From an uncultured Chloroflexia bacterium (GTDB lineage Bacteria > Chloroflexota > Limnocylindria > QHBO01), in the NCBI GenBank assembly GCA_963812115.1, contig CAWEUD010000043.1:123535-187534 (forward strand): 64,000 nt of DNA, given 5' to 3'. Positions 23,979 to 56,132 of the stretch are shown piece by piece. Within the stretch, counting starts at the first letter, position 1; every line of letters begins with the position of its first letter. The position numbers and the translations under genes are program-made. The notes below the pieces were generated by a model. It saw nothing but the letters and a program-made list of their open reading frames with translations. It did not search any database and was not told the origin of the DNA.

Positions 23979-24428
23979 GTGAGCGATGACTTCCGCCACA
24001 GCACGCCCGTCCAGGTGCGGTTCCGCGACATCGATGCGTTCGGCCACGTGAACAACGCGGTCGTCTCCACCTACGTGGAGCTGGCGCGGGTAAGCTACCT
24101 GCGCGACGTGCTGAAGCTGGACCCGGTGGGGCCGCTGAACCGGATGCCGCTGATCCTGGGCATGATCAGGATCGACTACGAGTCTCCGATCTTCCTGGCC
24201 GACGCCGTGCAGGTCGGATCGCGCGTGGAGTGGATCGGCCGCAGCAGCATCTCGATGTCGCACCGGCTGGTTGCCGAATCCGGGCGCGACCTGGCGCGGG
24301 CGACATCGGTCCTGGTGGCGTACGACTACGGGCAGGCACGGCCCATGCCGGTGCCTGATGATTGGCGCACCGCGCTGGCCGCCCACGAGGGGCGCGCCCT
24401 GGAGCGCCCGCAGCAGGGAGAGGCATGA
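23979..24428 (+). CDS. Acyl-CoA thioesterase (hotdog fold, 4HBT/YbgC-like)
   Basis: 149 aa: RFRDIDAFGHVNNAVVSTYVELAR. GTG start. Its stop overlaps the lpd ATG (ATGA). Confidence 0.75.
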   Translation: MSDDFRHSTPVQVRFRDIDAFGHVNNAVVSTYVELARVSYLRDVLKLDPVGPLNRMPLILGMIRIDYESPIFLADAVQVGSRVEWIGRSSISMSHRLVAESGRDLARATSVLVAYDYGQARPMPVPDDWRTALAAHEGRALERPQQGEA

Positions 24429-25845
24429 CCGACGAGCGACGCTACGACCTCCTGATCCTCGGTGGCGGGATGAGCTACGTGGGCGCCATCCGCGCCGCCC
24501 AGCTCGGCCTGAAGGTGGGCCTCGTCGAGCGCGACGCGCTGGGCGGCACCTGCCTCAACCGCGGCTGCATCCCGTCGAAGGCGCTGCTCGAGACCGCCGA
24601 CCTGCTGCACCGGGTGACGGAGCAGGGCCACGAGTTCGGTCTCGCCGGCAGCGACGGCGTCTCCCTCGACTACGGCCCGCTCGGCGAGCGACGAGATGCG
24701 GTGGTCGAGAAGCACGTCCGCGGCGTCGAGTTCCTGATGAAGAAGAACGGCATCGACGTCCTGCACGGCCAGGGCACTCTCACCGGCCCGACCAGCGTGC
24801 GCGTCTCCGGGGGCGAGTCGGGCGAGCTCCAGGCGAGCGCCACCGACCTCATCCTGGCGACCGGCTCGGCGCCGCGCTCCCTGCCGGGACTGGAGCCGGA
24901 CGGCGAGCGGATCATCACCAGCGACGAGGCGCTCAAGCGCAACGACGTGCCGGCACGGGTGACGATCGTGGGGGCGGGCGCCATCGGCGTCGAGTGGGCG
25001 TCCATGTACCGCGACTTCGGCTCGGAGGTCACGCTGGTCGAGTTCCTGGACCGCGTGGTCCCCCTCGAGGACGCGGACGTCAGCAAGGAGCTGAACCGGG
25101 TCTTCCGCAAGCGCGGCATCGCGATCCACACCGCCTCGACGATCGACACCGAGAGCATCCAGCGCTCCGATGACGGGCTCACCTTCAGCGTCAAGGCCAA
25201 CGAGGGCGACAGGCGGACCGATGTAGGGGCGGACATCATCCTGGTGGCGGTCGGGCGCCGACCGCTGACCGATGAGCATCGGCCTGGAGCAGATCGACGG
25301 CCTGCAGATGGAGCGCGGCTACGTCAAGGTCGACGAGTACATGCGGACCGGCGTCCCGCACCTCTACGCCATCGGCGACATCGTGCCGGGCTTCGCCCTG
25401 GCGCACGTGGCGGCGCACGAGAGCGTGGTGGCGGTCGAGACGATCGCCGGGCACGACCCGGAGCCGGTCCGCTCGGACCTCATGCCGCGGGTCACCTTCT
25501 GCCGGCCGCAGATCGGCAGCGTGGGCCTGACCGAGGCAGAGGCGCGCGAGGCCGGCCACGAGGTGAAGACCGGCCAGTTCCCGTTCCGGGCGCTCGGCAA
25601 GGCGACCATCGTCGGCGAGATCGACGGCTTCGCCAAGTTCGTGGCCGATGCGGGCACCGGGATGCTGCTGGGCGCGCACATCATCGGCGCCGCACGCCGG
25701 CGACCTGCTGCCGGAGCCGACCCTGGCGCTGCTGGTGGAGGGGACCGCGGCCGAGATCGCCATGAGCGTCCACGCCCACCCGACGCTCCCCGAAGTCCTG
25801 GCCGAGGCCGCCATGGCGGTCGACGGCGACGCGATCCACGTCTAG
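24425..25845 (+). CDS. lpd: Dihydrolipoyl dehydrogenase (E3), with two apparent +1 frameshifts (about 25283-25290 and 25690-25700)
   Basis: The N-terminus (MTDERRYDLLILGGGMSYVGAIRAAQLG...GGTCLNRGCIPSK) is in frame 2, the middle (GIGLEQIDGLQMERGYVKVDEYMRTGVPHLYAIGD) in frame 3, and the C-terminus (HAGDLLPEPTLALLVEG...HAHPTLPEV) in frame 1. Confidence 0.8.
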
Positions 25846-25861
25846 GAGAAGGAGGCAGGCA

Positions 25862-26876
25862 GTGGCAACCACCGACACCAGGGCCCGCCACCTCGAGCTC
25901 GGCCTGACCGACGACGACGTGCTCGACATGTACCGCACGATGCTGCTGGCACGGGCCGTCGACGAGCGGATGTGGCTCATGCAGCGTGCCGGCAAGATCG
26001 CCTTCATCATCTCGGGCCAGGGCCACGAGGGGGCGCAGGTCGCCACCGCCTGGCCGCTGCGCAAGAACCAGGACTGGATGGCGCCCGTACTACCGCAGCA
26101 TCGCGTCGACGATCGCGTTCGGGATGAGCGCGGAGGACATCATCACCGCCCACCTGGCCAAGGGAGACGACGTCAGCTCCGGCGGACGCCAGATGCCGGG
26201 CCACTACGGGGCCGCGCCGTTCAACATCGTCAGCCTCTCGTCGCCGGTCGGGACGCAGGTCCTGCACGCGGTCGGGATGGCCATGGGTGCCTGGGTGCGC
26301 GGCGACGACGTGGTGGCGCTCACGACCTACGGCGAGGGGACCAGCAACCAGGGCGAGATCCACGAGGCGATGAACTTTGCCGGCGTCCACAGGCTGCCGG
26401 TCATCTTCGTCTGCGAGAACAACGGCTACGCGATCAGCGTCCCGCTCGAGAAGCAGGTTGGCGGGATGAGCGTGGCGGCGCGGGCGCAGGGCTACGGATT
26501 CCCGGGTGTTCGGGTCGACGGCTCGGACCCGCTGGCCTGCTACGCGGCCGCCAAGGATGCCCACGAGCGGGCACGTCGCGGTGATGGGCCGACCCTGATC
26601 GAGGCGCGGGTGGTCCGCCTGACCAGCCACTCCTCGGACGACGACCAGCGCCGCTACCGTGACCCCGCCGAGGTCGAGGCGCTCAAGGAGCAGGATCCGC
26701 TGGCGCGCTTCGGCGCGCAGCTGCGGAGCGCCGGCATCCTGGACGACGAGCGCGAGGACGAGCTTCGCGCGCAGATCAAGGCGGCGGTCAACGACGCCAG
26801 CCGTCGGGCGGAGGCGCGCCCGGAGCCCGATGTCTCGCAGGCCGCACGCCACGTGTACGCGGACGGGGAGGCCTGA
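25862..26876 (+). CDS. 2-oxoacid dehydrogenase E1 component alpha subunit (PDH/BCKDH-type), with a +1 frameshift near 26084-26087
   Basis: Frame 2 gives MATTDTRARHLELGLTDDDVLDMYRTMLLARAVDERM...NQDWMAP. Frame 3 continues YYRSIASTIAFGMSAEDII...TYGEGTSNQGEIHEAMNFAG (the TPP-binding region). There is an extra nucleotide inside gcgcccgtac. Confidence 0.8.
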
Positions 26877-27971: not shown

Positions 27972-29456
27972 ATGCCAACCACGATCAAGATGCCGCAGCT
28001 CGGCGAGTCGGTCACCGAGGGAACGATCGAGCGCTGGCTGGTCAAGGAAGGCGACAGCGTCGAGCAGTACGACCCGCTCTTCGAGGTCGTGACCGACAAG
28101 GTCAATGCCGAGGTGCCGTCGGAGGTCGCCGGCACCATCACCAAGATCATGGTCCCCGACGGCGAGACGGTCGCCGTCGGCACCCCCCTGGCCGAGATCG
28201 ATGCGGAGGGCGGCACCGCCCAGCCTGCCGAAGACCAGGGAGAGGCGGCCGCGGAGCAGGAGGCGCCCGCCGAGCAGGAGGCACCGGCCGAAGAGGAGCC
28301 ACCGGCCGAGCAGGAGGCGCCCGCCGAGGAGACACCGGCACCCCAGCCCCCGCCGCAGGAAGCGAACGAGCCGGCGAGTGAACCCGTGGCCGCCGCCGCC
28401 AGTTCGGAGACGAGCGGACCCCCCACCGACGCGTCGGTGCGCATGACCCCGGCCGTGCGCCGACTGGTGCGTGAGCACGAGATCGATATCAGCCAGCTGA
28501 ACGGATCCGGAGCCGGGGGACGCGTCACGCGGGACGACGTGCTGGCCTACATCGAGCGAGCGGAGCCGGGCCAGCCGCAGCCGCCCGCGCCGCCATCACC
28601 ATCGCCCGAGCAGCCAGCGCCCGCTGCGGCACAGGCAGCTCCCGTCGCAGCTCCCGCCCAGCGGCAGCAGGAGGCGGCACCCGAGCCGCAGCCACAGGCG
28701 CCGGCTGCCTCGTATACGCCGCCCTCGCCAACTCCGGCGCCGGCCGGCGGCGACCAGGAGATGCCGCTCTCGCAGATGCGCAAGGGCATTGCCGCCAAGA
28801 TGACGCGGGTCAAGCAGACCGTCCCCCACGCCTACACCGTGGTGGAGGTCGACATGGGCAACGTCGTGCGCTGGCGGGAAGCGAACCAGGCCGCCTACAA
28901 GGCGCGCGAGGGAATCGGCCTGTCGTACGTCGCCGTCGTGGTCAAGGCGGTGACCGAGACCCTGCGCCAGCATCCGACCGTGAACAGCCAGTTCGCCGAC
29001 GACAAGATCATCCTCAAGCAGGCCATGAACGTCGGCATCGCGGTCGCGGTCGACAACGGTCTGCTGGTTCCGGTCATCCACAATGCCGACCAGCTCTCGA
29101 TCAGCGGCGTGAACCACAAGGTCCAGGACCTCGCGGCGCGAGCGCGCGACAACAAGCTCAAGCTGGACGAGATCCAGGGCGGCACCTTCACGGTGAACAA
29201 CACCGGCTGGTTCGGGTCGGTCTCCTCGATGCCCATCGTCAACGCCCCCGAGGTGGCCATCCTCTCCATGGAGGCGATCGTCAAGCGCCCCATGGTCGTG
29301 ACCGTCGAGGGCGAGGACGTGATCGCCATCAGGCCGATGATGAACATGACCTGTTCGTTCGACCATCGTGTGCTCGACGGCGCGCAGGTCGGCGGCTTCC
29401 TGGCCGACGTCCGGAAGCGCCTCGAGGAGTGGGATCCCGAGACGTCCATCGGCTGA
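27972..29456 (+). CDS. Dihydrolipoamide acyltransferase (E2): lipoyl domain, peripheral subunit-binding domain, catalytic domain
   Basis: Lipoyl-attachment region (MPQLGESVTEGTIERWLVKEGDSV...VVTDKVNAEVPS), PSBD (PAVRRLVREHEIDISQLNGSGAGGRVTRDDV), and a catalytic His-containing C-terminus (DHRVLDG). Confidence 0.9.
   Translation: MPTTIKMPQLGESVTEGTIERWLVKEGDSVEQYDPLFEVVTDKVNAEVPSEVAGTITKIMVPDGETVAVGTPLAEIDAEGGTAQPAEDQGEAAAEQEAPAEQEAPAEEEPPAEQEAPAEETPAPQPPPQEANEPASEPVAAAASSETSGPPTDASVRMTPAVRRLVREHEIDISQLNGSGAGGRVTRDDVLAYIERAEPGQPQPPAPPSPSPEQPAPAAAQAAPVAAPAQRQQEAAPEPQPQAPAASYTPPSPTPAPAGGDQEMPLSQMRKGIAAKMTRVKQTVPHAYTVVEVDMGNVVRWREANQAAYKAREGIGLSYVAVVVKAVTETLRQHPTVNSQFADDKIILKQAMNVGIAVAVDNGLLVPVIHNADQLSISGVNHKVQDLAARARDNKLKLDEIQGGTFTVNNTGWFGSVSSMPIVNAPEVAILSMEAIVKRPMVVTVEGEDVIAIRPMMNMTCSFDHRVLDGAQVGGFLADVRKRLEEWDPETSIG
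28251..28340 (+). repeat. Five imperfect tandem 18-nt repeats encoding the AEQEAP-type Ala/Glu/Pro linker of E2
   Basis: gcGGAGCAGGAGGCgCCc units visible directly in the sequence. Typical flexible-linker low-complexity DNA. Confidence 0.6.
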
Positions 29457-31536: not shown

Positions 31537-32362
31537 ATGACCACCAGGCAGCCGATGCGCGATATCAGCGCTCCTCCCGCCGCAGCGCCGGAACCGCGCC
31601 GCCTGCGCCGACCGCGCCGCGACCTCCCGTACCGGCCGGCCAGCGACGAGCACCCGCTCCTGGCGGCGCACGGCGGGCGGCTCAGCGTCGAACGGCTCGG
31701 GACCGTTCCGTACCAGCCGACGTGGGAACTGCAGGACGAGCTGGCGCAGCAGCGTCGCGAGCGGCGCATCGGCGACCGGCTGCTGCTGCTCGAGCACTTC
31801 CCGGTCTACACCATCGGTCGCGGTGGTGACGAGGCGAACCTGCTCGCGTCCCGCGACCGGCTGCGGGAGATCGGCGCCGAGTTCGTCCGCATCGACCGCG
31901 GTGGCGACATCACCTTCCACGGGCCGGGCCAGCTGGTCGCGTACCCCATCGTCGAGCTGCACGACCCGCTCGATCTGCGCCGGTACGTTCGAGCGCTCGA
32001 GGCGGCGATCATCGACACGGCGGCGGCCTTCGGCGTGGAGGCTGAACGGGTGCCCGGCCTCACCGGGGTGTGGGTCGAGGAGCCGGCGCAAGCTGGCCGC
32101 CATCGGCGTCCGCGTCAAGCGCGGCGTCACGACCCATGGCCTGGCGCTCAACGTGAACACGGAGCTGCGCTGGTTCGACGAGATGATCCCGTGCGGCATC
32201 CCTGACAAGGAGGTCACCTCCCTCGCTCGCGAGATGGGCAGCCCCGTCCGCATGGAGCACGTCGAGGATGCACTTGCCGCCGCCCTGGCCCGGCACTTCG
32301 GTCTGCGCCTGGACGCCGGCCGCGGGGCCATTCCGGGTCCGGCCGGGGCCAGCGAGCAGTGA
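31537..32362 (+). CDS. lipB: Lipoyl(octanoyl) transferase LipB, with a +1 frameshift near 32080-32090
   Basis: Frame 1 gives MTTRQP...LLLLEHFPVYTIGRGG...ITFHGPGQLVAYPIVEL...GLTGVWVEEP. Frame 2 continues KLAAIGVRVKRGVTTHGLALNV...CGI. The catalytic Cys and Lys are present. Confidence 0.8.
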
Positions 32363-33057
32363 CAGGGCGCGACGAGGTGACCGTCGAGCGCCGCACCGGC
32401 CCGGCCGACCATGCGGCGCGCATCGAGATCGGCGCCTTCGGCCCGTGGCAGACGAACAGCTACCTGGTCTGGGACGGGCACTCGCCGCAGGCGCTGGTCC
32501 TGGATCCGGGCATGGGCGCCGCGGACCCCCTGATCGAACGCCTCTCCGCCAACGGCCTGCAGCTGCACGTCATCGGCAACTCGCACGGGCACATCGACCA
32601 CGTCTTCGACAACGCTCCGCTGAAGCGCGCCAGCGGAGCGCCGCTCGCCATCCACCCCGACGACGCCTACCGGCTGAGCCAGCCGAACAGCTACGGCTTC
32701 GAGGTCGAGCCGGTGACTGCCGAGCGCGAGCTGCGCGACGGCGAGCAGCTGCGCATCGGCGACCTCGTCTTCGACATCCTCCACACGCCCGGCCACACCG
32801 AGGGATCCGTCTGCCTCTACGAGGAGCGCCACGCCCTGCTGCTCGCGGGTGACGTGCTGTTCGCCGGCACCTACGGCCGCACCGACCTGCCCGGCGGCGC
32901 CGACGATGCCATGGTCGCCAGCCTCGCGCGGCTCGCGCGCGACCTCCCGGGCGACGTGCGGGTGCTGCCCGGTCATGGGCCGGAGACGACGCTGGAGCGC
33001 GAACGCCCATGGATGGAGCGCATCGCTCGCGCCGGCAGGCTGCTGATCCCCGGCTGA
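32359..33057 (+). CDS. MBL-fold metallo-hydrolase (hydroxyacylglutathione hydrolase-like)
   Basis: HGHIDH metal-binding motif, plus HTPGHT and a downstream Asp/His. The GTG start overlaps the lipB stop (GTGA). Confidence 0.8.
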   Translation: MTGRDEVTVERRTGPADHAARIEIGAFGPWQTNSYLVWDGHSPQALVLDPGMGAADPLIERLSANGLQLHVIGNSHGHIDHVFDNAPLKRASGAPLAIHPDDAYRLSQPNSYGFEVEPVTAERELRDGEQLRIGDLVFDILHTPGHTEGSVCLYEERHALLLAGDVLFAGTYGRTDLPGGADDAMVASLARLARDLPGDVRVLPGHGPETTLERERPWMERIARAGRLLIPG

Positions 33058-33137: not shown

Positions 33138-33855
33138 ATGTCGAAGCTGCGGATCACCCGGCTGGGTCACGGCGGAGTCCTGTATCGATCCCCGGGCGAC
33201 AAGTGGGTCTGGGTCGACCGATGGACGACTGCGCCCAACTACCCCGATGCCTACCGCGAGCCGGAGCAGGTCGACGTCATCGCGCCGACCCACGGCCACT
33301 TCGACCACATCGGCGACGACGGCGTGGACGTCGTTGAGCTCGCCAAGGCATGGCGGGCAGCTGATCGCCAGCCACGAGATGAGCATCTTCTTCATCGGCA
33401 AGGGCATCGAGGGCGCGGTTGGCATGAACACCGGCGGCACGCTTCGAGGCGGCCGGCATCCGCTTCAGCATGGTCCCCGCCGTCCATTCCGGCGGCGCGA
33501 CCCTGAGCGACGTGGACCCGGCGGTGACCCGCGACCTCGGCTGCTGGGGCTGGGTCATCGAGTTCGAGGACGGCACCCGCGTCTACCACTCCGGCGACAC
33601 CGACGTCTTCGGCGACATGGCGCTGATCAGGGACCGATGGGCGCCGACCGATCGCGCGTGCTGCCCATCGGCGGCCACTACACCATGGGACCGGCCGATG
33701 CCGCGCGCGCGGTGGCGCTGTGCGGCGCGAGCACCGTCATCCCGGTCCACTACGGCACCTTCCCGATCCTGGCCGGCACGCCCGAGCGAGCTCGCCGCGG
33801 AGACCATGCGCGAAGGTGGTGGACGCTCGAGCCGGGCGAGACCTGGGAGGCCTGA
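33138..33855 (+). pseudogene. Metal-dependent hydrolase of the beta-lactamase fold (UPF0173-like), broken by at least four frameshifts
   Basis: Conserved pieces are spread over three frames: MSKLRITRLGHGGVLY...APTHGHFDHIGD; GGQLIASHEMSIFFIGKGIEGAVGMNTGGTL; MVPAVHSGGATL...GWVIEFEDGTRVYHSGDTDVFGDMALIRDRW; RVLPIGGHYTMGPADAARAVALCGASTVIPVHYGTFPILAGTP. Confidence 0.7.
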
Positions 33856-34529
33856 TGCCGGAGCGGAGATCACCGTCGCGCTCGAGGTCGGGCGAGAAGC
33901 GCGTCTTCGCCATCGCGCTGGACTGGCCCGGCTGGGCCCGCAGCGGCCGAGGCGAAGACGAGGCGCTGGAAGCCGCTGGCGGCGTACGCCGAGCGCTACG
34001 CCGCAGCCGTTGGCGAGCCGGAGCCTGGCCGATGAGCCTGCGTACGAGGTCGTCGAACGGCTGGCCGGCGAATCCGACACCGACTTCGGCGCGCCGGGCG
34101 TCGAGGCCAGCGGCGGACGACAAGGCCACTGGACGACGCCGAGCTGGAGCGTCAGGTGCGGACTGCTGCGCGCCGCATGGCGGGCCTTCGACGACGCCGC
34201 GCGCGACGCCGACGACGCATCGCTGCGGACCGGTCCGCGCGGCGGCGGCCGGGACGTGCGCGAAGATGACCGAGCCACGTGCTCGGAGGCGGAGGAGGCA
34301 TACCTCTCGAAGCTCGGCAGCCGCCGGCCTCGCCCGGTGCCCGAGGACCCCGCCGAACGCATGGCGCAGGTCCGCGAAGCCGGCATCGCCGCGCTGCGCG
34401 CCCGCGCCGCGGGAGGAGCCGGCGCAGCCGAGCCAGGTCCGCGAGCGCTGGATGCCGCGCTACTGCGTGCGCCGCTCGGCGTGGCACGCGCTCGACCACG
34501 CCTGGGAGATCCGCGATCGGATCGAGTGA
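33855..34529 (+). CDS. Hypothetical protein (DinB/DUF664-like ending?), frameshifted at least twice
   Basis: Coherent segments in two frames (GEKRVFAIALDWPGW...; AYEVVERLAGESDTDFGAPGVEASGGRQGHWTTPSWSVRCGLLRAAWRAFDDAAR...; ...RYCVRRSAWHALDHAWEIRDRIE). Confidence 0.35.
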   Translation: MPERRSPSRSRSGEKRVFAIALDWPGWARSGRGEDEALEAAGGVRRALRRSRWRAGAWPMSLRTRSSNGWPANPTPTSARRASRPAADDKATGRRRAGASGADCCAPHGGPSTTPRATPTTHRCGPVRAAAAGTCAKMTEPRARRRRRHTSRSSAAAGLARCPRTPPNAWRRSAKPASPRCAPAPREEPAQPSQVRERWMPRYCVRRSAWHALDHAWEIRDRIE

Positions 34530-34546: not shown

Positions 34547-35127
34547 TCAGGGCCCGATGCGCAGCACCGATTCGACAACGATGTGGGCGACCAGGAGCCC
34601 CGCCACCGCGAGCGCCAGGAAGCCCACCAGCAGGTTGGCGGCACGTAGCCGGAGGCCGATGACCGCTTCGGTCGCGTCTGCCCCTGCGTCGCGTCGCAGC
34701 TCCAGGCGCAGCAGCGGGACCACGGCCGCCAGGAGCGCAACCAGGGGCGCCGCGATCAGCAGCAGGTCGAGCGGACGCATCCGGTTCATGGCCTCGTTGA
34801 CCGGCTCCATCAACGCGGAGAGGCCCGACAGGCCCAGCTCGTAGGTCAGGTACGACATACCGACGAAGATCAGCGTCGGGGCCAGGACGGCCGCGCCCGC
34901 CAGCGCCCAGCCGGTGGGATGCCGCCACGCAGGACCGATCACCATCTCAGCGCCTCCTTGCGCGATTGCGCGTCGCGCGGTACGGACACGCTCCCGAATG
35001 CCGCCGCGCGCCAGGTCCACGATGACTCGCGGGGGGCCAGGCCGGTTTCGTCGACCAGCGCCAGCAGCTCGTCGCCGTAGCGTTCGCGCCAGCGCGCGGG
35101 ATAGATGCCCAGCAGCAGCCGCTTCAT
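34547..35127 (-). CDS. Membrane protein encoded downstream of PadR (N-terminal YPARWRERYGDELLALVDE motif plus a TM C-terminus), with one frameshift near 34940-35020
   Basis: ORF 34939..35127 (MKRLLLGIYPARWRERYGDELLALVDETGL) and ORF 34547..35020 (hydrophobic TM helices) overlap in different frames. The N-terminal motif is typical of PadR-associated membrane proteins. Confidence 0.5.
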
Positions 35128-35509: not shown

Positions 35510-36679
35510 TCAGCGCCAGATCGGCGCGTAGGGGTGCTGCCCGACAATGTGGTCCTCCTCCGCGAAGCGCTCGAAGCGGTATGGCCGCAGGTCGGCGACC
35601 CTGGCCTCTCCGTCGAGGATCAGCTCGGCCAGCGCCGCGCCGACGGCCGGCGCGATCTTGAAGCCGGTGCCCGAGAAGCCGCAATCCAGGTAGAAGCCCT
35701 CCGGGCCGGCCGGGCCGATGATCGGGTGCTGGTCGGGCGTGATGCCGTCCTGCCCGGAGTGAGCGCTGTGCAGCCCCGCATCTTCCATGGCCGGCAGGCG
35801 CCTGCTCAGCCGCTCGGCCGCCTTCTCCAGGAAGCCCGGCGCCGCCGCGTCGACCGGGGCGTCGGGCGAGCCGCCCAGCGGATTGCCGTCCTCCAGCGCA
35901 ACCAGCGTCAGCGAGTCTCCCTCGGGGCGCGCGTACATCGAGTTTGCGAAGTCGATGATGACCGGGTGGCGCGGCATCCGATCCGGCCGCCGGACGTAGG
36001 CGACGTCATGGCGCCAGACCTGGAGCGGCACTTCCACCCCCACCGACGCGGCCAGGGGGCCGGCCCATGCGCCAGCGGCGTTGACGACGATCGGCGCCTC
36101 GAAGCGGCCGCGGCTCGTCTCGACGCCGACCACGCGGTCGCCCTCGTGCAGGATCTCGGATGACCAGGCAGCGGGTCACGAGCCGCGCGCCACGCGCTAC
36201 GGCCGCGGTGATCAGGCTGGTGGTGGTCATGGTCGGGTCGGCGTAACCGGAGGTCGGCTCCCAGGCCGCAACCTCGACGTCGTCGACCACGGATCCCGGG
36301 CACCCGCTCGCGGACCTCGTCGGGGCCGATGAGCCGCGTGTCGATGCCCAGGCGCTGCTGCATCGCCACGTTCGCGCGCAGCTCCTCGACCTCATCGGGC
36401 GGGACCAGCTGCACGAAGCCGGTCTGCACGAAGCCCGCATCCCCGCCGACCCGCTCGCCCCAGTTGGCGAAGTAGCCGTGCGAGACCCAGGCCAGGCGCG
36501 CATCGGCCTCGACGTCGTAGTGCATGCGGACCAGGCCGCTGGAGCGCCCGGTGGCGCCGCCGGCCGCGGTGCTGCGCTCGAGGACGACGGCCTTGCATTC
36601 CGGCCGCGGCCAGGTGGAAGGCCAGCGATGCGCCATGGATGCCGGCGCCGATGATGATCGCGTCTGCTGTCTCAACCAT
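35510..36679 (-). pseudogene. FAD-dependent oxidoreductase (DAO family; sarcosine oxidase beta / glycine oxidase-like), with at least three frameshifts
   Basis: N-terminal Rossmann motif MVETADAIIIGAGIHGASLAFHLA (start ATG preceded by GGAGG at 9 nt). The middle (…GRSSGLVRMHYDVEADARLAWVSHGYFANW…) and C-terminal (…GVETSRGRFEAPIVVNAAGAWAG…GFYLDCGFSGTGFKIAP) segments are in different frames. Confidence 0.7.
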
Positions 36680-46801: not shown

Positions 46802-46960
46802 ATGGCAATGTTGGACTATCGAATGCACTACGCGGTGATGGCGACGCACGATCGCCTGCGCGCCCATCGCCAGCAGGAGATCACGCGCGACCGCGGCGTG
46901 CGGCGCATCTTCCGCCTGGTGGGCGGCCGGAGCGGCGCCCGCAGCGAATCAGGCCGCTGA
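46802..46960 (+). CDS. Small basic protein (52 aa), hypothetical; not present in the supplied ORF table (below the size cutoff)
   Basis: ATG preceded by AAGGAG at 5-nt spacing. Translation: MAMLDYRMHYAVMATHDRLRAHRQQEITRDRGVRRIFRLVGGRSGARSESGR. The stop lies 1 nt before the DUF2089 ATG. Confidence 0.5.
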   Translation: MAMLDYRMHYAVMATHDRLRAHRQQEITRDRGVRRIFRLVGGRSGARSESGR

Positions 46961-46961
46961 G

Positions 46962-47396: not shown

Positions 47397-47397
47397 G

Positions 47398-48385
47398 ATG
47401 GCCAGGTTCGTTCGCGTGCAGAACATCCGGCACACACTCGGCGCAGAGGGGCGTTTCGACCTGAAGGTCACCTCCGCAGACGTCCGCGTGCGCGGGAATG
47501 ATGGGGCGGACCTGAGCGTGCGGGCCACGTTCGAGATCCGCGCCGAATCCGAGCAGGAGGCCGACGAGATCTTCCGGCGCGTCCAGCTGCTGACCGAGGC
47601 CGGATCCGGGCGCGTCTCGGTCCAGGAACCGGACGGCGCGCCGTCGATGCGCGGAATGATCGACCGCCTGCTGCGCGGCCGCGGCGGCGTCGAGCTGAGC
47701 GTGGAGGTGGAGGTGCCCCAGGCTGCCGAGGTCCGGCTCGAGACCGTCTCCGGGGACGCGACCGTCGAGGGAATGCTCGGGGCGCAACGCTACACGACCG
47801 TCTCGGGCGACCTGTACCTCACCGACGCGGGCGGCAGCATGCGCGTGAACACGCGTGTCGGGCGACGTCACCGTGCGCGGTGAGCGAGCCATCTCGCTGC
47901 GCAGCGAGGCCGTTTCGGGGGACCTGAGCGTCGCGGTGCCACGCATCGAGACCTGCGCAGCCAGAGCGTCTCCGGTGACGTCGAGGTGGAGGGCGAGCTG
48001 GCACCGACGGGCGAGTTTCGCGCCGAGACGGTGAGCGGAGACGTATCGGTCGGGCTGCTGGGGGGCGCGAACCTTCGAGGTTCGCGGCATCTCGACCGAC
48101 ATCAGCAGCGACCTCGACCACCGAATCGAAGGGCGCCTGGATCGGCGGCGGGTGGTGGTCGGCAGCGGTGGTCCGACATTCGTCTTCAATTCCATGTCCG
48201 GTGACCTGAGCATCCGTCGGCCGAGGCGGGTGACGCCGTTGGCGCCGGATGCGCGACCTTCCGCTCCGACGGCGACGCTCCGGGCGCCGGACGAGGCGGA
48301 GCAGCTGGCCGTGCTGCAGGCTCTCGAGCGCGGCGAGATCGACGTGGACGAGGCGAGCCGGCGGCTGGGCGGCGGCGATGCGTGA
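47398..48385 (+). pseudogene. DUF4097 ('toastrack'/putative adhesin; LiaG/LiaX-YvlB C-terminal-like) repeat protein with at least three frameshifts
   Basis: Repeated beta-strand units ending VSGD(V/L) (…TVSGDATVEG…, TVSGDLYLTD, AVSGDLSVAV, SVSGDVEVEG, TVSGDVSVGL, SMSGDLSIRR) spread over three frames between 47398 and 48385. Confidence 0.7.
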
Positions 48386-48757
48386 CGAGCTGGGGACCAT
48401 CCTGCGCCTCGTGGCCGAGGGCAAGCTGAGCGCGGAGGAGGCCGCCCCCATCATCGAGGCGCTCCAGCGCCGGCAGGCGTACGACGCCCCGCAGGCGACG
48501 AGGCCGGCCACCGGGGTGAAGACCATGCCGGTCCCCCACGAGGACGCCGAGTGCGGATCCAGGTCACGGAGCGTGGACGTCACGTCGTGGACCTCCGCAT
48601 CCCCCTCGCGTTCGCGGCGGCCGCCGCACGGGTCGTTCCGGGGATCCCGGACACCTACGCAGCCATGATCGAGCAGGCGGTCGACAACGAGACCGCCGGG
48701 ATCATCGTCGACACCGAGGACGAAAGCGGTGACGGCGTCCTCATCAGCTTGGAGTAG
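48378..48757 (+). CDS. SHOCT/LiaX-N-terminal-like small protein, with one frameshift near 48540
   Basis: Frame A: MRDELGTILRLVAEGKLSAEEAAPIIEALQRRQ. Frame B continues …VRIQVTERGRHVVDLRIPLAFAAAAARVVPGIPDTYAAMIEQAVDNETAGIIVDTEDESGDGVLISLE. Confidence 0.5.
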
Positions 48758-48764
48758 CAGGACC

Positions 48765-51062
48765 ATGGACGTGACCACAGCCCCCGCGGCCGACGCCGCC
48801 CGGGCCTCCGGCCCCCGGCTGACGCGGCCGCTGCGGGAGCGCGACTTCCGCCTCGTGTTCGCCGGCGAGAGCATTTCGCTGCTGGGGGACCAGTTCCATT
48901 TCGTTGCCCTGGCCTGGCTGACCCTGCAGCTCACGGCCTCGGGCCTGGCGCTTGGCACGGTGCTGACCGTGGCCGCCGTGCCACGCGTCATCTTCATGCT
49001 CGTCGGCGGAGCACTCTCCGACCGGATGTCGCCGCGGACGCTGATGCTTGCTTCGAACGCGATCCGGGCCGCGGTCGTCGGCGTGGTTGCGGCGCTGGTC
49101 CTGACCGGCAACGCGCAGCTCTGGCAGCTGTACATCCTCGCCGGCATCTTCGGCATGGTCGACGCGTTCTTCTACCCGGCCATGAACACCATCGTGCCGA
49201 TGCTGGTTCGGGAGTCGCTCCTCTCTCCGGCCAACGCGCTGATCCAGGCGACGCAGCAGCTGTCCGGCCTGATCGGCCCGGCATTGGCGGGCGTCGTCAT
49301 CGCGGCCGTCGAGACCGGGCCGGCGTTTGCCATCGACGCCGTCTCGTTCGCCGTCGCGGCCGGAGCACTGCTGCTCGTCCGTGGCGGCCGACGCCTCCCC
49401 GCACAGGCCGCCGCCGAGGGCGAGCGATTGCTGGGCACGATCGGTTCCGGCGTCGCCTACGCGTGGCGCGACCCGCCCGTCCGCGCGCTGATCTTGCTGA
49501 CGGCTGCGTTCAACTTCGGGTTCATCGGGCCGATCGGCGTCGGCATTCCGTACCTCGCCGACCAGCGCTTCGGCGGCGGGGCGATCGCGTTCGGCGTGCT
49601 GATGTCCGCATTCGGCGCCGGAGCGCTCTTGGGCGCCATCCTGGCCGGCTCCCTGCGGCACGTCCCGCGGCTGGGCGCAGTGGTCATGGTCGTGGCTGCC
49701 ATCCTGGGCCTGGAGCTCGCGCTGCTCGGCATCGTGCCGAACCTGGCGCTGGCACTCCCGGTGGGCGCGACGATGGGCGTCGGGGTCGGCTTCATCAACG
49801 TCCGGGTCATCTCATGGCTGCAGGCGCGGACGCCGGAAGGCATGCGTGGCCGGGTCATGAGCCTCGCGATGCTCGGCTCGCAGGGCCTCGGCCCGTTCAG
49901 CCTCGTCGTCGCGGGTCTGCTCATCGAATTCGGGGCGGTCTCGGTCATGTTCGCGGTGGCCGGATCGATCATCGTCCTGGCTGTGCTGGCGGGAGTTCGT
50001 CATGGGGGTACCCGCGCAGATGCGCGACGAGGCAGCGTCATGACCGCGCTCGCGATCGAGGCCCGGGGACTGGTCAAGGAGTTCGAGCGCGGACGTCGCA
50101 CGACCTGGCAGCGGCTGCGCCGCAAGCCCGACCGCCGGGAGCGGTTCCGCGCCGTCGACGGCGTCGACCTGGAGGTGGCGCAGGGCGAGATCTTCGGCGT
50201 GCTGGGGCCGAACGGCGCTGGCAAGACGACGACCATGAAGATGCTGGCGACGCTCCTCGAGCCAACGGCGGGGAGCGCCCGAGTCCTCGGCCTCGACGTC
50301 GTCACCCAGGCGCGCGACGTTCGGCGCCGCATGGGGGCCGTCCTCTCCGACGGGCGCAGCCTCTACTGGAAGCTGACCGCCCGGGAGAACCTGGAGTACT
50401 TCGCCGCGCTGTACCACGTGCCGCCGGCAGAGGCCCGGGGACGCATCGACGGCGCGCTGCGCGCCGTCCGCCTGGAGGATCGCGACGAGGACTACGTGGA
50501 GCGCTTCAGCACCGGCATGCGCCAGCGGCTGGTGCTCGCCCGCGCCCTGCTCCCCGACCCGGAGCTGCTGCTGCTGGACGAGCCGACGGTCGGCCTGGAC
50601 CCACAGTCGGCGCGCGACCTTCGGGACCGCGTGCGCGAGCTGAAGGCGCAGGGACGGACGGTCCTGCTCACCACGCACTACATGGAGGAGGCCGATCAGC
50701 TCTGCGACCGGATCGCGATCGTCGACCACGGGCGCGTCGTGGCGCTGGACACGCCGGCGCGCCTGAAGCAGACGGTGGGCGCCACCGAGGTGGTGCGCCT
50801 GGAGGTCTCGCCCCTCGGGGACGGCACCTTGAACGGGCAGCTCGTTTCGCGCCTGGCGGGCGCGGGCCAGGTCGTCCAGCAGGAGCTCGGGACCGATGGA
50901 CGCCTCAGCATCACGGTCCACTGCCGCAGCGCCCGCGACTTCGTGCCGGCCGCCTTCGACGCGGCGCGCGCGGAAGCGGCGCGCATCGACCACGTCGAGG
51001 TGGTCCCGGTCACGCTGGAGGACGTCTTCATCTCGCTCACCGGCCGGGGGCTGCGAGAGTGA
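48765..51062 (+). CDS. MFS transporter (425 aa, DHA3/EntS-like) fused in frame, with no stop, to an ABC transporter ATP-binding domain (ATG at 50040)
   Basis: 12 to 14 TM MFS portion, then MTALAIEARGLVKEF…GPNGAGKTTT (Walker A), FSTGMRQRL (signature), LLLDEPTVGLD (Walker B). An ATGA lies at the junction in the +1 frame, so the fusion may be an artefact of an upstream indel. Confidence 0.7.
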   Translation: MDVTTAPAADAARASGPRLTRPLRERDFRLVFAGESISLLGDQFHFVALAWLTLQLTASGLALGTVLTVAAVPRVIFMLVGGALSDRMSPRTLMLASNAIRAAVVGVVAALVLTGNAQLWQLYILAGIFGMVDAFFYPAMNTIVPMLVRESLLSPANALIQATQQLSGLIGPALAGVVIAAVETGPAFAIDAVSFAVAAGALLLVRGGRRLPAQAAAEGERLLGTIGSGVAYAWRDPPVRALILLTAAFNFGFIGPIGVGIPYLADQRFGGGAIAFGVLMSAFGAGALLGAILAGSLRHVPRLGAVVMVVAAILGLELALLGIVPNLALALPVGATMGVGVGFINVRVISWLQARTPEGMRGRVMSLAMLGSQGLGPFSLVVAGLLIEFGAVSVMFAVAGSIIVLAVLAGVRHGGTRADARRGSVMTALAIEARGLVKEFERGRRTTWQRLRRKPDRRERFRAVDGVDLEVAQGEIFGVLGPNGAGKTTTMKMLATLLEPTAGSARVLGLDVVTQARDVRRRMGAVLSDGRSLYWKLTARENLEYFAALYHVPPAEARGRIDGALRAVRLEDRDEDYVERFSTGMRQRLVLARALLPDPELLLLDEPTVGLDPQSARDLRDRVRELKAQGRTVLLTTHYMEEADQLCDRIAIVDHGRVVALDTPARLKQTVGATEVVRLEVSPLGDGTLNGQLVSRLAGAGQVVQQELGTDGRLSITVHCRSARDFVPAAFDAARAEAARIDHVEVVPVTLEDVFISLTGRGLRE

Positions 51063-51903
51063 GCGGATCGGTCATCCTCGGCGACCTGCGCGCATTCGGC
51101 GCGGCGGCGATGAAGGAGTGGCGCCTCCTGCGCCGCTACCCGACCATGTTCATCGGGTTCCTGTTCTGGCCGATCGCGCTGCCGCTCTTCTACGTCATGC
51201 AGGCGCGCGGCTACGCGGGCGACAGCCAGGCCGCCATGGACGCGTTCGCCCAGCGCTCGGGGACGGTCGAGGTGGCCGGATTCCTGTTCCTGGGCTGGGC
51301 GGCCTACATGTGGATCAGCATGATCCTGTGGGGCCCGGGCACGGCGCTGCGCACCGAGCAGGTGCGCGGCTCGCTCGAGGCGCTCTTCATGACGCCCGTC
51401 TCGCGGCTGGTGATCCTCTTCGGGCCGATGGTCAGCCAGATCGTCTGGGCGCTCTGGATGTACGCGATGGTGGGCGGCACGATCACCCTCGTCTTCGGCG
51501 TGGAGGTCGGCCTCGCGGCAGCGCTGCGCGCCGTTGTCGTGATCGCCGTGGCCGTTCCCGCCCTGTACGGGCTCGGAGCGCTCTTCGCCGCGGTCGTGCT
51601 GCGCTTCGGCGAGGTGAGCGCGCTGGTGCAGGGCGTGCGCGGCATCTTCACCGTCTTCTGCGGCATGAGCTTCCCGATCATCGTCCTGCCCGAGTGGGGC
51701 CGGGCGGTGGCGCTGGCCCTGCCGCCCACCTACCTGATCGCCGACCTGCGGCGCGTGCTGCTGACCGGGGCCGACCTCGGCACGCTGCTCCCGGACCTGG
51801 CCGTGCTGCTGGCCTGGGCCTGGCCCTCTGCGCGCTGGCGGTCGTCGCCTTCCGCCGGACCGAGCGCTACGCCCGCCGCGGCGGCAGCCTGGCGCAGTAC
51901 TGA
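51059..51903 (+). CDS. ABC-2 type transporter permease, with one frameshift near 51830
   Basis: The GTG start overlaps the ATPase stop (GTGA). The TM-rich protein switches frames within its last 25 codons (…AWAW / GLGLALCALAVVAFRRTERYARRGGSLAQY). Confidence 0.75.
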
Positions 51904-51908
51904 AGCCG

Positions 51909-52735
51909 ATGAACGCCGAGCTGCGCGCCGCCCTGGCGATCGCGCGCAAGGAGCTGCAGATGGCCCGGCGCTACCCGCTGCAGCTGGTCAACGAGGTGCT
52001 CCAGCCGCTCTACCAGTTCCTGCTGCCCAGCCTGCTGCTGGGGGCCAGCCTTCCTGGTCGGCGGCCGCGCCATCGGCCTCGAGTCGGTCACCGGAACGGA
52101 CGACCTGGCCGGCTACCTGTTCCTCGGCATCGTGGTGAGCGGCCTGGTGGCGACGGCCTTCTGGGAGATGGCGTTCGGCCTGAAGCGCGAGATGGACGCC
52201 GGGACGCTGGAGCCGGCCTGGCTGACCCCCACGCGCCCGGAGACGCTGGTGCTGGGGCGTGCCATCTCCGGCCTGGCGGTCGCCAGCCTGGCCGGAGCCG
52301 TGCTGGTCATCATCGGCCTGACGGTCTTCGGTGCGACGGTCTCACCGGCCGTGCTGCTGGCGCTGCCCGCCCTGGTGCTGGCGCGTCTCAGCATGGTGGG
52401 CATCGGCTTCCTCGTCGCCTCGTCGGTGCTGCTGATCCGCGAGCCGAACTTCTTCGTGGACGCCACCAACTTCATGTTCTCCTCCGTGTCGGGCGTGGCC
52501 TTCCCGGTCGTCGTGCTGCCGGCGCTGCTGCAGCCGATCGCCTACCTGCTGCCCGACTACCTACGCGGTCGACCTGCTGCGGGTCTACGCCATGGGGACG
52601 CGGCCGCTGCTCGACGCCGCGCTCGAGTGGCTCGTGCTGGCCGTGATGCCCGCGCTGCTCATCTGGCTGGGCCGCGCGGTCTTCCTGCGCACCGAGCACC
52701 GGATGCGCGTTCGCGGCACGCTCGGCCAGCACTGA
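51909..52735 (+). CDS. ABC-2 type transporter permease, with two frameshifts (near 52050 and near 52560)
   Basis: MNAELRAALAIARKELQMARRYPLQLVNEV… continues in a second frame (…FLVGGRAIGLESVTGTDDLAGYLFLGIVVSGL…) and a third (…AVDLLRVYAMGTRPLLDAALEWLVLAV…). Confidence 0.7.
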
Positions 52736-53028
52736 CGACGGCGCCGACGACCGCCGGCGAGACGGCAGACAGCGGGTCGCGGCGGATGGTTGAATAGGCG
52801 GCCGAATGCCAAACGAACCACCGCGCCGCCCACGGGGGACCGAGGAGCGCCGCGTCGATCCCCTGCTGGAGGTCCGCGAGAAGCGGCGCGGCAAGCGCCC
52901 CGGCGACTCGTACGTCCGCATCGTTCGGCCCTTCGAGGACGAGTTCGAGCGATCCGATGAAGGGACGCTGATCGCATCGGAGAAGACGATCCTCGACCGC
53001 AGCGGATGGACCGCGGGCGCTGCGCGGC

Positions 53029-54887
53029 ATGCGCACCGCGCTCATCGGCCGGCCGATCTCGTCGGAGCGCGAGGAGCACGAGCGCCTCACCAAGCTGAAG
53101 GCCATGGCGGTCTTCTCCAGCGACAACATCAGCTCCAGTCCGCCTACGGCCCCGAGGAGATCATGCGCGTGCTGGCCCTGACCGGGGACGGCGGCCCTCA
53201 TCGCTGACCGTCCCGCTGGCGGCGCTCATCATCGTGATGCTGGCGATCGTCTCGCTCTCCTACCGCCAGACGATCAAGGCCTACCCCAACGGCGCCAGCA
53301 GCTACATCGTCGCCGGCGACAACCTGGGCGACGACGCCGGCATCCTGGCCGCATCGGCGCTGCTCATCGGTTACGTGGTGACGGTGGCGGTCTCCGTTTC
53401 GGCCGGCGTGGCGGCCATGACCTCGATCATCCCGGAGCTGTTCGACTACCGCGTCTACATCTCCGTGGCCGCGGTGGCGCTGCTCATGCTCGGCAACCTG
53501 CGCGGCATCCGCGAGTCGGGGACGATCTTCATGGCGCCCACCTACCTCTACATCACGGTGATGCTGGGGATCGTGGTGCTCGGATTCGGCCGCATGCTCT
53601 TCGGCGGCGGCCTGCCCCAGTACGACGGTCCCGCCGGCTGGAGCGAGCAGCTGGAGAGCGCCGGCGCGGCGCTCGGGCTCTTCCTGGTCCTGCGCGCCTT
53701 CTCGCAGGGCGCGGTGGCCCTGACCGGCGTGGAGGCGATCTCGGACGGCGTTCCGGCATTCAAGCCACCCGAGTGGCAGAACGCGCGCACCACGCTGACC
53801 TGGGCGGCGGCGATCTTCGGCATCATGTTCCTGGGCATCGCCGTGCTGGCCACGGCTTCCGGCATCGTCCCCGACCCCGACGAGCAGCAGACCGTGCTCT
53901 CCATGCTGGTTCGGCAACATCGCCGGATCGGGCTCGATCCTGATCCTGGCCCAGGTGGCCACGGCGCTGATCCTGGTGCTGGCCGCCAACACCAGCTTCG
54001 CCGACTTCCCGCGCCTCTCGTCCTTCCTGGCGCGCGACGGCTTCCTGCCGCGCCAGTTCGCCTTCCGCGGCGAGCGCCTGGCCTTCACCACCGGGATCGT
54101 GGCCCTCTCCGGCCTGGCGATCGCCTGCTGATCGTCGTCTTCCAGGCGAGCGTCTCCGGCCTGATCCCGCTCTACACGCTGGGCGTCTTCATCGCCTTCA
54201 CGCTGTCGCAGGGCGGCATGCTGATGCGCTGGTATCCGGCGGCGCGAGCGGGGATGGCGGCAGGGGCATGGCGATCAACGGCCTGGGCGCGCTCACCACG
54301 TTCGTGGTGATGCTGGTGGTCGGCTCATCCAACTTCTTCGCAGGGCGCCTGGCTGGTGGTGCTCCTGGTGCCGATGATGATGGCTGCTGCTCTCCGCCAT
54401 CCGGCGTCACTACCGCAGCCTGGAGCGGCAGCTCGAGCTCGACCGCATCCCCGAGGGCCGCGAGATAGCCGCCGAGCCGCTGGTGATCGTGCCGATCGCG
54501 CGGCTCGACCGCACGGCGCGCCAGGCGATCGCCTTCGCCAACTCGATCAGCGACCACGCCACGGCGGTCCACATCACCAACGACCCCGATTCGGCCAGCG
54601 AGCTGCGGGCGCGCTGGCCGGAGTGGGCCGGCAAGACGGAGCTGGTGGTGGTCGAGTCGCCGTATCGCGCCCTGGTCGGACCGCTGCTGCGCTACATGGA
54701 CGCGCTGCAGGCGCAGGATCCCGACCGCCCGGTGGTGGTGGTCCTCTCCGAGGTGGTGCCGCGGCACTGGTGGGAGAACCTGCTGCACAACCAGACCGCG
54801 CTGCGGCTCAAGCTGCGCCTCTTCAGCCGCCCGAACACCATCGTGGCCGACGTCCCCTACCACGTCGCAAAGGCCGCCGAAGGCTGA
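53029..54887 (+). pseudogene. APC-family permease of the KimA/YdaO type (N-terminal LIGRPISSEREEHERLTKLKAMAVFSSD motif, C-terminal cytoplasmic domain), broken by at least five frameshifts
   Basis: Start MRTALIGRP at 53029 in frame 1. The TM core is in ORF 53234..54310 (frame 2), and the C-terminal domain is in ORF 54483..54887. Confidence 0.7.
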
Positions 54888-54892
54888 GCGCG

Positions 54893-56132
54893 CTAGGCGA
54901 CGAACTCCAGCACGTTGATGGCGTAGATGCCGTAGGCGTGGACGACCACGCCGATGACCACCGCCGCCACCAGCCAGCCCGATGCACGCTCGCGGTAGGC
55001 CCAGCCAAGCAGGAGCATGATCACCGGCATGGCGTCCAGCGCGAAGCGGTAGCCGAACTGGGCGAAGCCCCACGAGCCGTGCATCACGTCGGGCAGCAGG
55101 ATCAGACCCGACGCTGGCCATGCGCCACGGGCACCAGCGGCTCGCGATCGCGGACGCGCCAGGCGGCCGCGGCCCAGAACAGGAACGGCGCTGACAGGGT
55201 GAACGACAGGCCGGTGATGTTCGGCCGCAGGAAGGGCGCCGCATCGACCCAATCGAAGCTCTGCAGCAGGATCGCGTACAGGTGGCGCGGGATGTAGAGC
55301 GGCGAGACGAGGCCGTGGCTGAACCACGGCTCATCGGTCACCACGCCGGACTCGCCCGACGGGATGCGGGCGTAGCCGAAGTCGAACGGCGAGCCGAAGC
55401 GGGCCAGGTTGTACCAGGCCAGCACCAGCGCCGGCAGGGCCAGGCCGGCGAGCAGCACAGCTGCGCGCGCGTCGGGCGACGCCAACCGTCGGCGTAGAAC
55501 GCCAGCAGGAGCGGCAGGGCCAGGCCGGTCGGCAGCCGGGAGCCGGCGGCCAGCCCCAGCAGGAGCCCGGCGGCCGCGGGCCAGCGGCGGCTGAGCGCGA
55601 CGTGCAGCGCCAGCAGCAGGAAGAAGACCGCCACCGTCTGCGCGAACAGGTGCGTCCCCGCCATGCCGGCGACCCACCAGTGCGTGGTGAAGGCAAAGCC
55701 AATGGTCAACAGCTGCCGCGCGCGGAACTCGACGCCGATGCGGCCGAGCAGCCAGAAGACGAGGGCGACGTTCGCCGCGCCGATGACCGCCGATGTCGCA
55801 TTCGAAGCCACCTCGCCAGCTCCGAGGAGGTTGGCCAGCGCGACGGCCGGCATGAGCAGGACGGCGGGCACCGGCGGGAAGGGCGAGTACTGCCCGCCGT
55901 CCGGCGCGGGGATCAGCTCCAGCCACGGACGATCGACCGGGATCGAGAGGCGGCCGTGCAGGAAGGCGTCGGCCAGCGGCACGAACGAGTCGCCTCCCGC
56001 AGTGGTGGGGCCGGTGAGCCAGTAGCTGATGAACGCCAACGCGGTGAGGACCGCGCCGGCGACCAGTTCCGGGGTCAGGCGGTCGGCAAACGTGCGCGGC
56101 AGAGGCGTATCGGCGACGGCTCCGGTGCTCAC
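54893..56132 (-). pseudogene. GT39/PMT-ArnT-like integral-membrane glycosyltransferase, with two frameshifts
   Basis: Three overlapping minus-strand ORFs (55338..56132, 55102..55926, 54893..55327) together encode a protein with about 11 TM helices and an N-terminal DxD-less loop typical of GT-C enzymes. Confidence 0.55.

Follow-up and report, generated by a model that had tools for sequence, protein, structure and literature searches.

Clustered single-base frameshifts in conserved genes of a soil Chloroflexota metagenome contig: probable consensus errors rather than gene decay

Introduction

Pseudogenes under reductive evolution, of which Mycobacterium leprae offers an example, are marked by deletion bias, indels of mixed sizes, nonsense codons and an elevated level of nonsynonymous change. 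In leaf-nodule Burkholderia symbionts, they can carry several frameshifts per gene while the orthologues are intact, and curated bacterial pseudogenes have insertion:deletion ratios of 0.76-0.94 and a broad spectrum of indel sizes (PMC6054270).

Frameshifts can also enter a genome during its assembly. Long-read assemblies with less than about 40x coverage are known to carry frame-breaking indels, and the errors that persist in polished nanopore or HiFi consensus are mostly associated with homopolymers (PMC9262707, PMC12007338). The nanopore assembly profiled in PMC12007338 contained mostly deletions. In IDEEL-type tests, such errors appear as single-base indels that split full-length conserved genes (PMC9262707, PMC12007338).

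Here, we analyzed a stretch of 64,000 nucleotides (the window), part of a 189.7-kb metagenome contig, in which conserved genes are repeatedly interrupted by changes of reading frame. The organism is a soil Chloroflexota of the 'Candidatus Limnocylindria' type with free-living relatives, and not a reduced lineage, contrary to the streamlined or host-restricted lifestyle considered in the original prediction. The window shares several frameshifts per gene and intact orthologues with bacterial pseudogenes, but shows none of the four hallmarks of real pseudogenes listed above. As in long-read assemblies with gene-fragmenting errors, its events lack support in the relatives, probably vary with local data quality and have counterparts of the same kind in a related assembly. 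It departs from the textbook error of polished nanopore or HiFi data in that insertions make up 43 of the 49 events, with no event in a run longer than three bases.

Results

Census and clustering of the frameshifts

Same-strand frame switches were sought across the window with a codon-usage Viterbi approach, adopted after a GC3 frame plot had proven too noisy in its assignment of strands; about 30 switches without a stop codon were found. Proteins from a syntenic relative with 90% identity (L081/L082) were then aligned to the window by a frameshift-aware method, which placed 45 events. To these were added the event at 49998 in the MFS transporter (via a second relative, L098), those at 7714 in the DUF3105 gene and at 6348 in an unnamed gene, and one near 35019 in a PadR-associated membrane protein. 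The region from 0 to 20 kb was covered by codon statistics and by L083, which spans 6.0-9.2 kb. Pooling all methods, we count about 49 frame-breaking indels in otherwise well-conserved genes. The at least 30 frame switches originally predicted thus stand and are exceeded, and their coordinates were accurate to within about 10 nt. In the frame-corrected translations, single continuous Pfam matches span the junctions in lpd, E1 alpha, lipB, the MBL-fold hydrolase, the FAD oxidoreductase, the DUF4097 protein, the amino-acid permease (AA_permease), the DUF3105 protein and both ABC-2 permeases. The affected genes are listed below.

6042..6760, minus strand: unnamed conserved gene; +1 at about 6348 (Viterbi switch; one L083 ORF maps to two window frames)
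7357..7945, plus strand: DUF3105 gene; +1 at about 7714, A to AA (Pfam across the junction; L083 frameshift-aware and DNA alignment)
24425..25842, plus strand: lpd, dihydrolipoyl dehydrogenase; +1 at 25277 (C) and 25692 (G) (Pfam; relative alignment)
25862..26873, plus strand: E1 alpha; +1 at 26084, CC to CCC (Pfam; relative alignment)
31603..32359, plus strand: lipB; +1 at 32078-32083, about 32080 (LplA-B_cat Pfam match across the junction; relative alignment)
33138..33852, plus strand: MBL-fold hydrolase (Lactamase_B_2/3); six insertion events at 33348, 33442, 33650 (+2), 33787, 33806 and 33822
33855..34526, plus strand: hypothetical protein (221 aa in the relative); about 10-11 insertion events (relative alignment)
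34550..35127, minus strand: PadR-associated membrane protein; frameshift at about 35016-35022, +2 or -1 (frameshift-aware alignment)
35513..36679, minus strand: FAD-dependent oxidoreductase (DAO family); +1 at 36161 (T), 36291 (G) and 36598 (T)
47398..48382, plus strand: DUF4097 protein; +1 at 47854, -1 at 47948, +1 at 48070 (Pfam; relative; L098 agrees)
48378..48754, plus strand: SHOCT-like protein; -1 at 48465 (both relatives)
48765..50040, plus strand: MFS transporter; +1 at 49998 (L098 alignment)
51059..51900, plus strand: ABC-2 permease a; -1 at 51812 (Pfam; both relatives)
51909..52732, plus strand: ABC-2 permease b; +1 at 52047 and 52552 (Pfam; both relatives)
52806..54885, plus strand: APC-family (KimA-like) amino-acid permease; 11 insertion events at 53016, 53137 (+2), 53184, 53200, 53915, 54120 (+2), 54236, 54264, 54343, 54386 and 54867 (Pfam; both relatives)
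54896..56129, minus strand: GT39-like membrane protein; +1 at 55109, +1 at 55122, -1 at 55460 (both relatives)

All genes named in the original prediction are frameshifted. Its minimum counts for the MBL-fold hydrolase (four), the permease (five), the FAD oxidoreductase and the DUF4097 protein (three each) are reached or surpassed, while the GT39-like gene has three events by both relatives instead of two. The hypothetical gene at 33855-34526 is the densest patch, with events at about 1.4% of its bases, a count that is uncertain because its identity to the relative is only 73%. In the PadR-associated membrane protein, homologues of about 190 aa align in one stretch to residues 1-192. A 777-aa ORF at 48729-51062 appears intact and carries MFS_3 and ABC_tran Pfam domains; it is a fusion, made by the frameshift, of the MFS transporter with the downstream ABC ATPase, which in L098 are separate genes of 425 and 340 aa. 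A +1/-1 pair at 57807/57820 in a Crp-like gene, seen against L081, was absent against L098 and was set aside as a difference in the start region.

The events are far from uniformly distributed (variance/mean ratio 4.7-5.7, p < 1e-25), as had been predicted. The two clusters originally proposed, at 33.1-36.7 and 47.4-56.1 kb, hold as regions of clustering, but the structure is finer, with five clusters at 25.3-26.1, 32.1, 33.3-36.6, 47.9-48.5 and 50.0-55.5 kb. Event density is about 0.3% of positions across the patches, with a peak of about 1.4% in the interval 33.3-34.5 kb. Elsewhere in the window, about 30 kb of coding sequence contained none of the frame-breaking indels, and the longest coding stretch free of them measures 9.0 kb. 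Cluster edges fall inside genes: all three events of the GT39-like gene lie in the half adjoining the permease, and the sole event of ABC-2 permease a is at residue 235 of 264. Extra bases are also present between genes within the clusters (25857, 33111 and 51903). The indel positions thus follow the sequence coordinate and not gene function. No simple relation was found between frameshift density and either divergence from the relative or GC content.

Direction and sequence context

Nearly all events involve a single nucleotide, and 43 are of the insertion type, 5 are deletions and 1 is ambiguous, in line with the predicted predominance of +1 shifts. Among the 45 aligned events, the 40:5 ratio of insertions to deletions departs strongly from an insertion fraction of 0.48 (binomial P = 9e-9). 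Intergenic indels outside the clusters run in both directions. The 36 inserted bases that could be mapped (14 G, 11 C, 6 T and 5 A) match the composition of the genome, and 15 of the 36 extend a neighbouring base, compared with about 49% expected by chance in our own calculation. The insertion sites showed no association with homopolymers (the longest resulting run being three bases), no motif, methylation-like or other (at most 0.14 bit per position), and no 4-mer that stood out after all 256 were tested (best z about 3.4). For the 16 events with an unambiguous position within the codon, the insertion slots are evenly spread, with 6 at 3|1, 6 at 1|2 and 4 at 2|3.

Comparison with relatives

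The comparison with closely related genomes, proposed in the original prediction, was run on two independent syntenic relatives, L081/L082 (90% nucleotide identity) and the JGI metagenome contig L098 (87%), and both have the affected genes intact. L098 reproduces every indel site between 47.8 and 55.5 kb and adds the MFS event. Homologues of the permease are 647-704 aa long in 120 of 120 cases. The separate AceE-type E1, predicted to be intact, is indeed so in the relative alignment. A scan of genome contigs with AceE returned no syntenic close relatives, the best matches being short contigs of 83% and 76% identity. The relative does not continue beyond 20.3 kb in the upstream direction, as contig_67878 has no close copy of the glycogen debranching enzyme. 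Among the sequences found, the nearest share about 90% identity with the window, none of them from the same population. Judged from these alignments, the indels are derived in the window and specific to its assembly.

Identity to the relative is mosaic, ranging from 78 to 99%. The related assembly has +1 insertions of its own, at positions 17000, 18170 and 11865 of L082, in genes that are intact in the window, and these errors sit in a segment 98-99% identical to it. Genuine decay also occurs in the relative: there, an internal deletion of about 1.07 kb has reduced the MFS gene to a remnant of 73 aa, a form of decay that differs from the indels of the window. Two of the clusters border on islands that vary between strains, one with the PadR pair and the other with the MFS gene, and a biological hotspot could be an equally fitting reading of this.

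Tests for gene decay

About 4,200 frame-corrected codons contain no in-frame stop, although 2.3% of random substitutions in the affected genes would create one. The ratio dN/dS, which the original prediction proposed to check, gave no sign of decay: the pooled values are 0.169 for affected and 0.127 for intact genes. Individual values are 0.11 for lpd (97.9% amino-acid identity to the relative, no stops), 0.09 for E1 alpha, 0.06 for the FAD oxidoreductase and 0.12 for the permease; the MBL-fold hydrolase is 91% identical in amino acids to the relative and also free of stops. In a set of 61 homologues, the permease with its 11 frameshifts shows 6 residues that no other member has, against a median of 4 for the rest, and breaks no otherwise invariant column. 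By these measures, selection on the affected genes is not relaxed, and there is no evolutionary trace of gene death.

Discussion

Origin of the frameshifts

Direction, sequence context, decay tests and relatives support the regional consensus error put forward in the original prediction, and the frameshifts are very probably consensus errors of the deposited assembly rather than mutations of the organism. The consensus would contain spurious extra bases in patches of kilobase scale and be clean between them, the patches most likely having had very few supporting reads, or poor polishing, in a long-read assembly. Each extra base would shift the reading frame, and genes that the living population carries in intact form would come out of gene calling split or fused. 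The window fits raw-read-like noise at very low depth better than it fits systematic basecalling error. A nanopore origin with Flye and Medaka, a workflow used in PMC12313526, is only a guess, prompted by the 'contig_N' record name of the relative.

The second explanation originally offered, genuine local pseudogenisation, would have lpd, E1 alpha, lipB and others inactivated in a lineage losing functions. The frameshifts are indeed present in the deposited sequence, the database gene calls of the contig are fragments (P0362, P0424), many affected genes are plausibly dispensable, and a second E1, of the AceE type, is intact. Nevertheless, insertions stand to deletions at about 8:1, whereas real pseudogenes show a ratio of about 0.8. 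As a rule, substitutions are about 5-10 times as frequent as indels, so that some 45 indels should come with hundreds of substitutions and, at the share of stop-creating changes given above, 5-10 stops, of which there are none. The dN/dS of affected genes does not exceed that of many intact neighbours, and even the permease lacks an excess of private amino-acid changes. Furthermore, one gene can hold up to 11 events while its neighbours hold none, the cluster edges disregard gene boundaries, and the relatives are ordinary soil bacteria. We therefore consider real decay very improbable, and the predicted inactivation of the lipoylated 2-oxoacid dehydrogenase operon is contradicted with it. Slightly less probable still is a genuine and very recent burst of mutagenesis, localised and biased towards insertions, for instance by error-prone repair synthesis or gap-filling over kilobase tracts, which would have broken about 15 genes of a soil Limnocylindria cell line before substitutions accumulated. 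Such a burst would account for the kilobase-scale clustering and the missing substitution signal, and two clusters do lie near strain-variable islands. However, we know of no bacterial process that adds single bases regardless of context, at 0.3-1.4% of sites across kilobases, and leaves no substitutions beside them. The sampled population would also have to consist of a cell with about 15 broken genes, and the related assembly shows single events of this type in different genes, which points to the method and not to the history of one lineage.

The source of the extra bases within the assembly is a separate matter. A collapse of strains that kept both alleles of a polymorphic site as adjacent bases, itself a sub-type of the assembly-error explanation, would account for the excess of insertions, for their position outside homopolymers and for the genome-like composition of the inserted bases, and it would agree with the mosaic identity to the relative and with the relative's own errors in a nearly identical segment. 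Yet the density of frameshifts does not rise or fall with identity to the relative, and the insertion slots are not concentrated beside third codon positions, where strain polymorphisms mostly fall; the version in which both alleles of synonymous polymorphisms are kept was rejected on this uniform codon-phase distribution. We regard strain collapse as unlikely, if less so than either biological scenario. Programmed recoding, in which ribosomal frameshifting or transcriptional slippage rescues the affected genes, has in its favour the frameshifts in conserved genes and nothing further. It is refuted by the site contexts, none of which contains a slippery motif or a long homopolymer, and stands against up to 11 shifts per gene and orthologues without a shift in the relatives; its probability is negligible.

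Implications

With consensus error as the preferred explanation, the frameshifts flag a problem of data quality and carry no biological message. Through this contig, public protein collections receive broken and wrongly joined proteins, for example one membrane protein cut into halves of 132 and 62 aa and the MFS-ATPase 'fusion'. Such errors can be strongly local, and a contig-wide quality score would therefore hide them. Where reads are not at hand, artefact can be told from decay by the direction of the indels, the context of their sites, the number of nonsense codons, dN/dS, private substitutions and a comparison with two relatives. Overall, the 2-oxoacid dehydrogenase/lipoate operon, the permease, the ABC-2 transporter and the other affected genes should be treated as intact in this organism, and neither streamlining nor host restriction should be inferred from their frameshifts.

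Frame breaks and their counterparts in relatives

Coding frames were segmented with a codon-usage Viterbi model, for which the window's own long ORFs served as training set. Frame switches with a stop only a few bases away were taken as true gene ends and set apart from switches without a stop. This filter left about 30 candidate frameshifts, all located at 6.3-7.7, 25.3-36.6 and 47.9-55.5 kb. Once the frame segments were joined, Pfam matches ran unbroken over the junctions (lpd, E1_dh, LplA-B_cat, Lactamase_B_2/3, DAO, DUF4097, AA_permease_2, DUF3105 and ABC2_membrane). The corrected lpd product matched Pyr_redox_2 at residues 8-333 and Pyr_redox_dim at 354-462, and corrected E1alpha matched E1_dh at 30-330, across the junction. 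This continuity shows that the sequence genuinely contains the frame breaks.

Proteins of a syntenic relative (L081/L082) were aligned to the window DNA by a frameshift-aware dynamic programme. Over the 36.2 kb of coding sequence covered, this gave 45 events: 37 with one extra base (+1), 3 with two (+2) and 5 with a missing base (−1). With L098, a second syntenic relative, as the reference, all events at 47.8-55.5 kb were recovered and one more was found, a +1 towards the 3' end of an MFS transporter gene, at 49998. Others were a +1 at 7714 in DUF3105 and a +1 at 6348 in an unnamed gene (confirmed against the short relative L083). Altogether, some 49 events were catalogued, of which 43 are insertion-type, 5 are deletions and 1 is ambiguous. 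For the hypothetical gene at 33855-34526 the count is uncertain, since the relative's copy is only 73% identical. The frame breaks that the original prediction placed in conserved genes are confirmed, and its positions were accurate to about 10 nt.

The G+C content is about 70% along the entire window, and the closest matches of its proteins are soil metagenome sequences labelled Candidatus Limnocylindria or Chloroflexota. Two of its proteins have copies of 100% identity in the databases, both on one 189,703-bp contig deposited at NCBI and ENA. The frame-corrected permease has 120 homologues (647-704 aa; top identity 89%), one of which sits on the 347,857-bp contig ERZ25039549 contig_67878. 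This contig, compared via two overlapping pieces (L081 and L082), is collinear with window positions 20,318-64,000 at about 90% nucleotide identity, and L098, an independent relative from JGI metagenome 3300064525, is collinear with 45,016-63,999 at 84-87%. In this comparison to related genomes, which the original prediction had proposed, the broken window genes present on contig_67878 were each called there as a single full-length ORF, and their counterparts in L098 are also intact. On contig_67878 the exceptions are the MFS gene, reduced to a remnant by a deletion, and the PadR-associated pair, which is missing.

Identity to contig_67878 is mosaic (95-99% at 24.0-26.5, 37.5-39.5 and 51.0-52.0 kb; 78-92% elsewhere), and dS is 0.05-0.13 in lpd, E1alpha and ABC-2 a versus 0.3-0.4 in most genes, which suggests recombination between the two lineages. 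The E2 lipoyl-domain protein differs from that of contig_67878 by in-frame lengths of 27 nt and 3 nt in an Ala/Pro-rich linker (28332-28334 and 28647-28699), which is ordinary linker variation and no frameshift. Three tRNA genes lie in the window:

5916-5999, tRNA-Leu (tag)
8240-8314, tRNA-Lys (ctt)
56776-56851, tRNA-Arg (tcg)

The tRNA-Arg marks the start of a more divergent region, which a short unaligned gap separates from the second frameshift cluster; identity per 500 bp is 71-88% in this region versus 85-97% immediately upstream.

Assembly error versus gene decay

The non-uniform distribution claimed for the frameshifts was confirmed by a variance/mean of 4.7 (p ~1e-35) for events per 500-bp bin of coding sequence; 54 of the 72 bins held no event and one held 12. 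The longest event-free coding stretch spans 9.0 kb, despite a mean rate of 1.24 events per kb, and events are densest at 33.3-34.5 kb, where about 1.4% of positions carry an extra base. Cluster borders fall within genes, and spacers inside clusters also carry extra bases.

Insertions outnumbered deletions 40:5 among the 45 aligned events (binomial probability 9e-9 if a fraction of 0.48 were insertions). In contrast, curated pseudogenes of Burkholderia, another high-G+C group, have insertion:deletion ratios of 0.76-0.94, with indels of sizes 2 and 3 each one third as frequent as size 1 (PMC6054270). Outside the clusters, intergenic indels between the window and its relative run in both directions. 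The inserted bases (G14, C11, T6, A5) resemble the genome composition, 15 of 36 lengthen the adjacent base (about 49% expected by chance), and the longest run after insertion is 3. No sequence motif was detected around the insertion sites, with at most 0.14 bit of information at any position.

Genuine pseudogenisation, the other explanation considered in the original prediction, would leave further traces in the affected genes. Substitutions are normally several-fold commoner than indels, and at any normal ratio 11 genuine indels in a gene would be accompanied by roughly a hundred neutral substitutions. When 61 homologues are compared, the permease, with its 11 frameshifts, shows 6 residues unique to it (median of the others, 4), and it breaks none of the columns that are otherwise invariant. 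No in-frame stop codon occurs in the 36.2 kb compared, although 2.3% of random substitutions in the hit genes would yield one. The pooled dN/dS of the hit genes, also proposed as a check, is 0.169 versus 0.127 in intact genes (lpd 0.11, E1alpha 0.09, FAD oxidoreductase 0.06, permease 0.12). The events are window-specific, context-free insertions without an evolutionary footprint. Judged from sequence, the six tests (direction, context, nonsense codons, constraint, private changes, and geometry/replication) agree in favouring consensus error and disfavouring pseudogenisation, and we consider the frameshifts very probably to be assembly errors.

Such errors probably arose in stretches where very few reads underlay the consensus or where polishing was missed; read-length-scale depth fluctuations in a low-abundance soil metagenome member would give kilobase-scale patches. 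A near-finished consensus from nanopore-only assemblies takes about 40x coverage (PMC9262707), and in one large survey of soil MAGs assembly was by Flye and polishing by a single Medaka round (PMC12313526). In their insertion bias and their lack of homopolymer association, the window events depart from the way residual long-read errors are usually described. A variant of the artefact explanation, strain collapse with both alleles of a polymorphic site kept, is not supported by the codon-phase test, in which the insertion slots were spread evenly across phases.

Consequences for gene content

The +1 insertion at 49998 accounts for an apparent 777-aa MFS and ABC ATPase ORF at 48729-51062; in L098, a 425-aa MFS gene meets a separate 340-aa ATPase gene in an ATGA overlap. 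On contig_67878, a deletion of about 1.07 kb within the MFS gene left a 73-aa remnant (L081 7012-7233, corresponding to 48.76-50.04 kb of the window), in which the N-terminal part runs directly into the final few codons. Unlike the frameshifts, this is a clear case of real gene loss, the only one in the comparison, and it illustrates the form that such loss takes in this group. The PadR regulator and the membrane protein associated with it (34550-35430), missing from contig_67878, form a strain-variable island that lies centrally within the first frameshift cluster.

The membrane protein shifts frame at 35016-35022, and a full HMMER search gave homologues of about 190 aa whose alignments cover residues 1-192 of the corrected product without a break. 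The two halves of this frameshifted protein (34550-35127) are separate protein library entries, P0362 (132 aa, 100% identity to the window) and P0424 (62 aa, 94%). It follows that the frameshifts are present in the deposited contig, which seeds truncated proteins into databases. The related assembly has isolated +1 insertions of its own (L082 17000, 18170 and 11865), in an ABC ATPase, an ABC-2 permease and the lipB 3' end, all three intact in the window (37734-39460 and 32087-33057). One of them fuses lipB with the downstream MBL-fold gene, called as 484 aa.

Inactivation of the lipoylated 2-oxoacid dehydrogenase operon, raised in the original prediction, was not borne out, as the hits in it are most probably assembly errors. 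On the sequence evidence, this operon should be regarded as functional.
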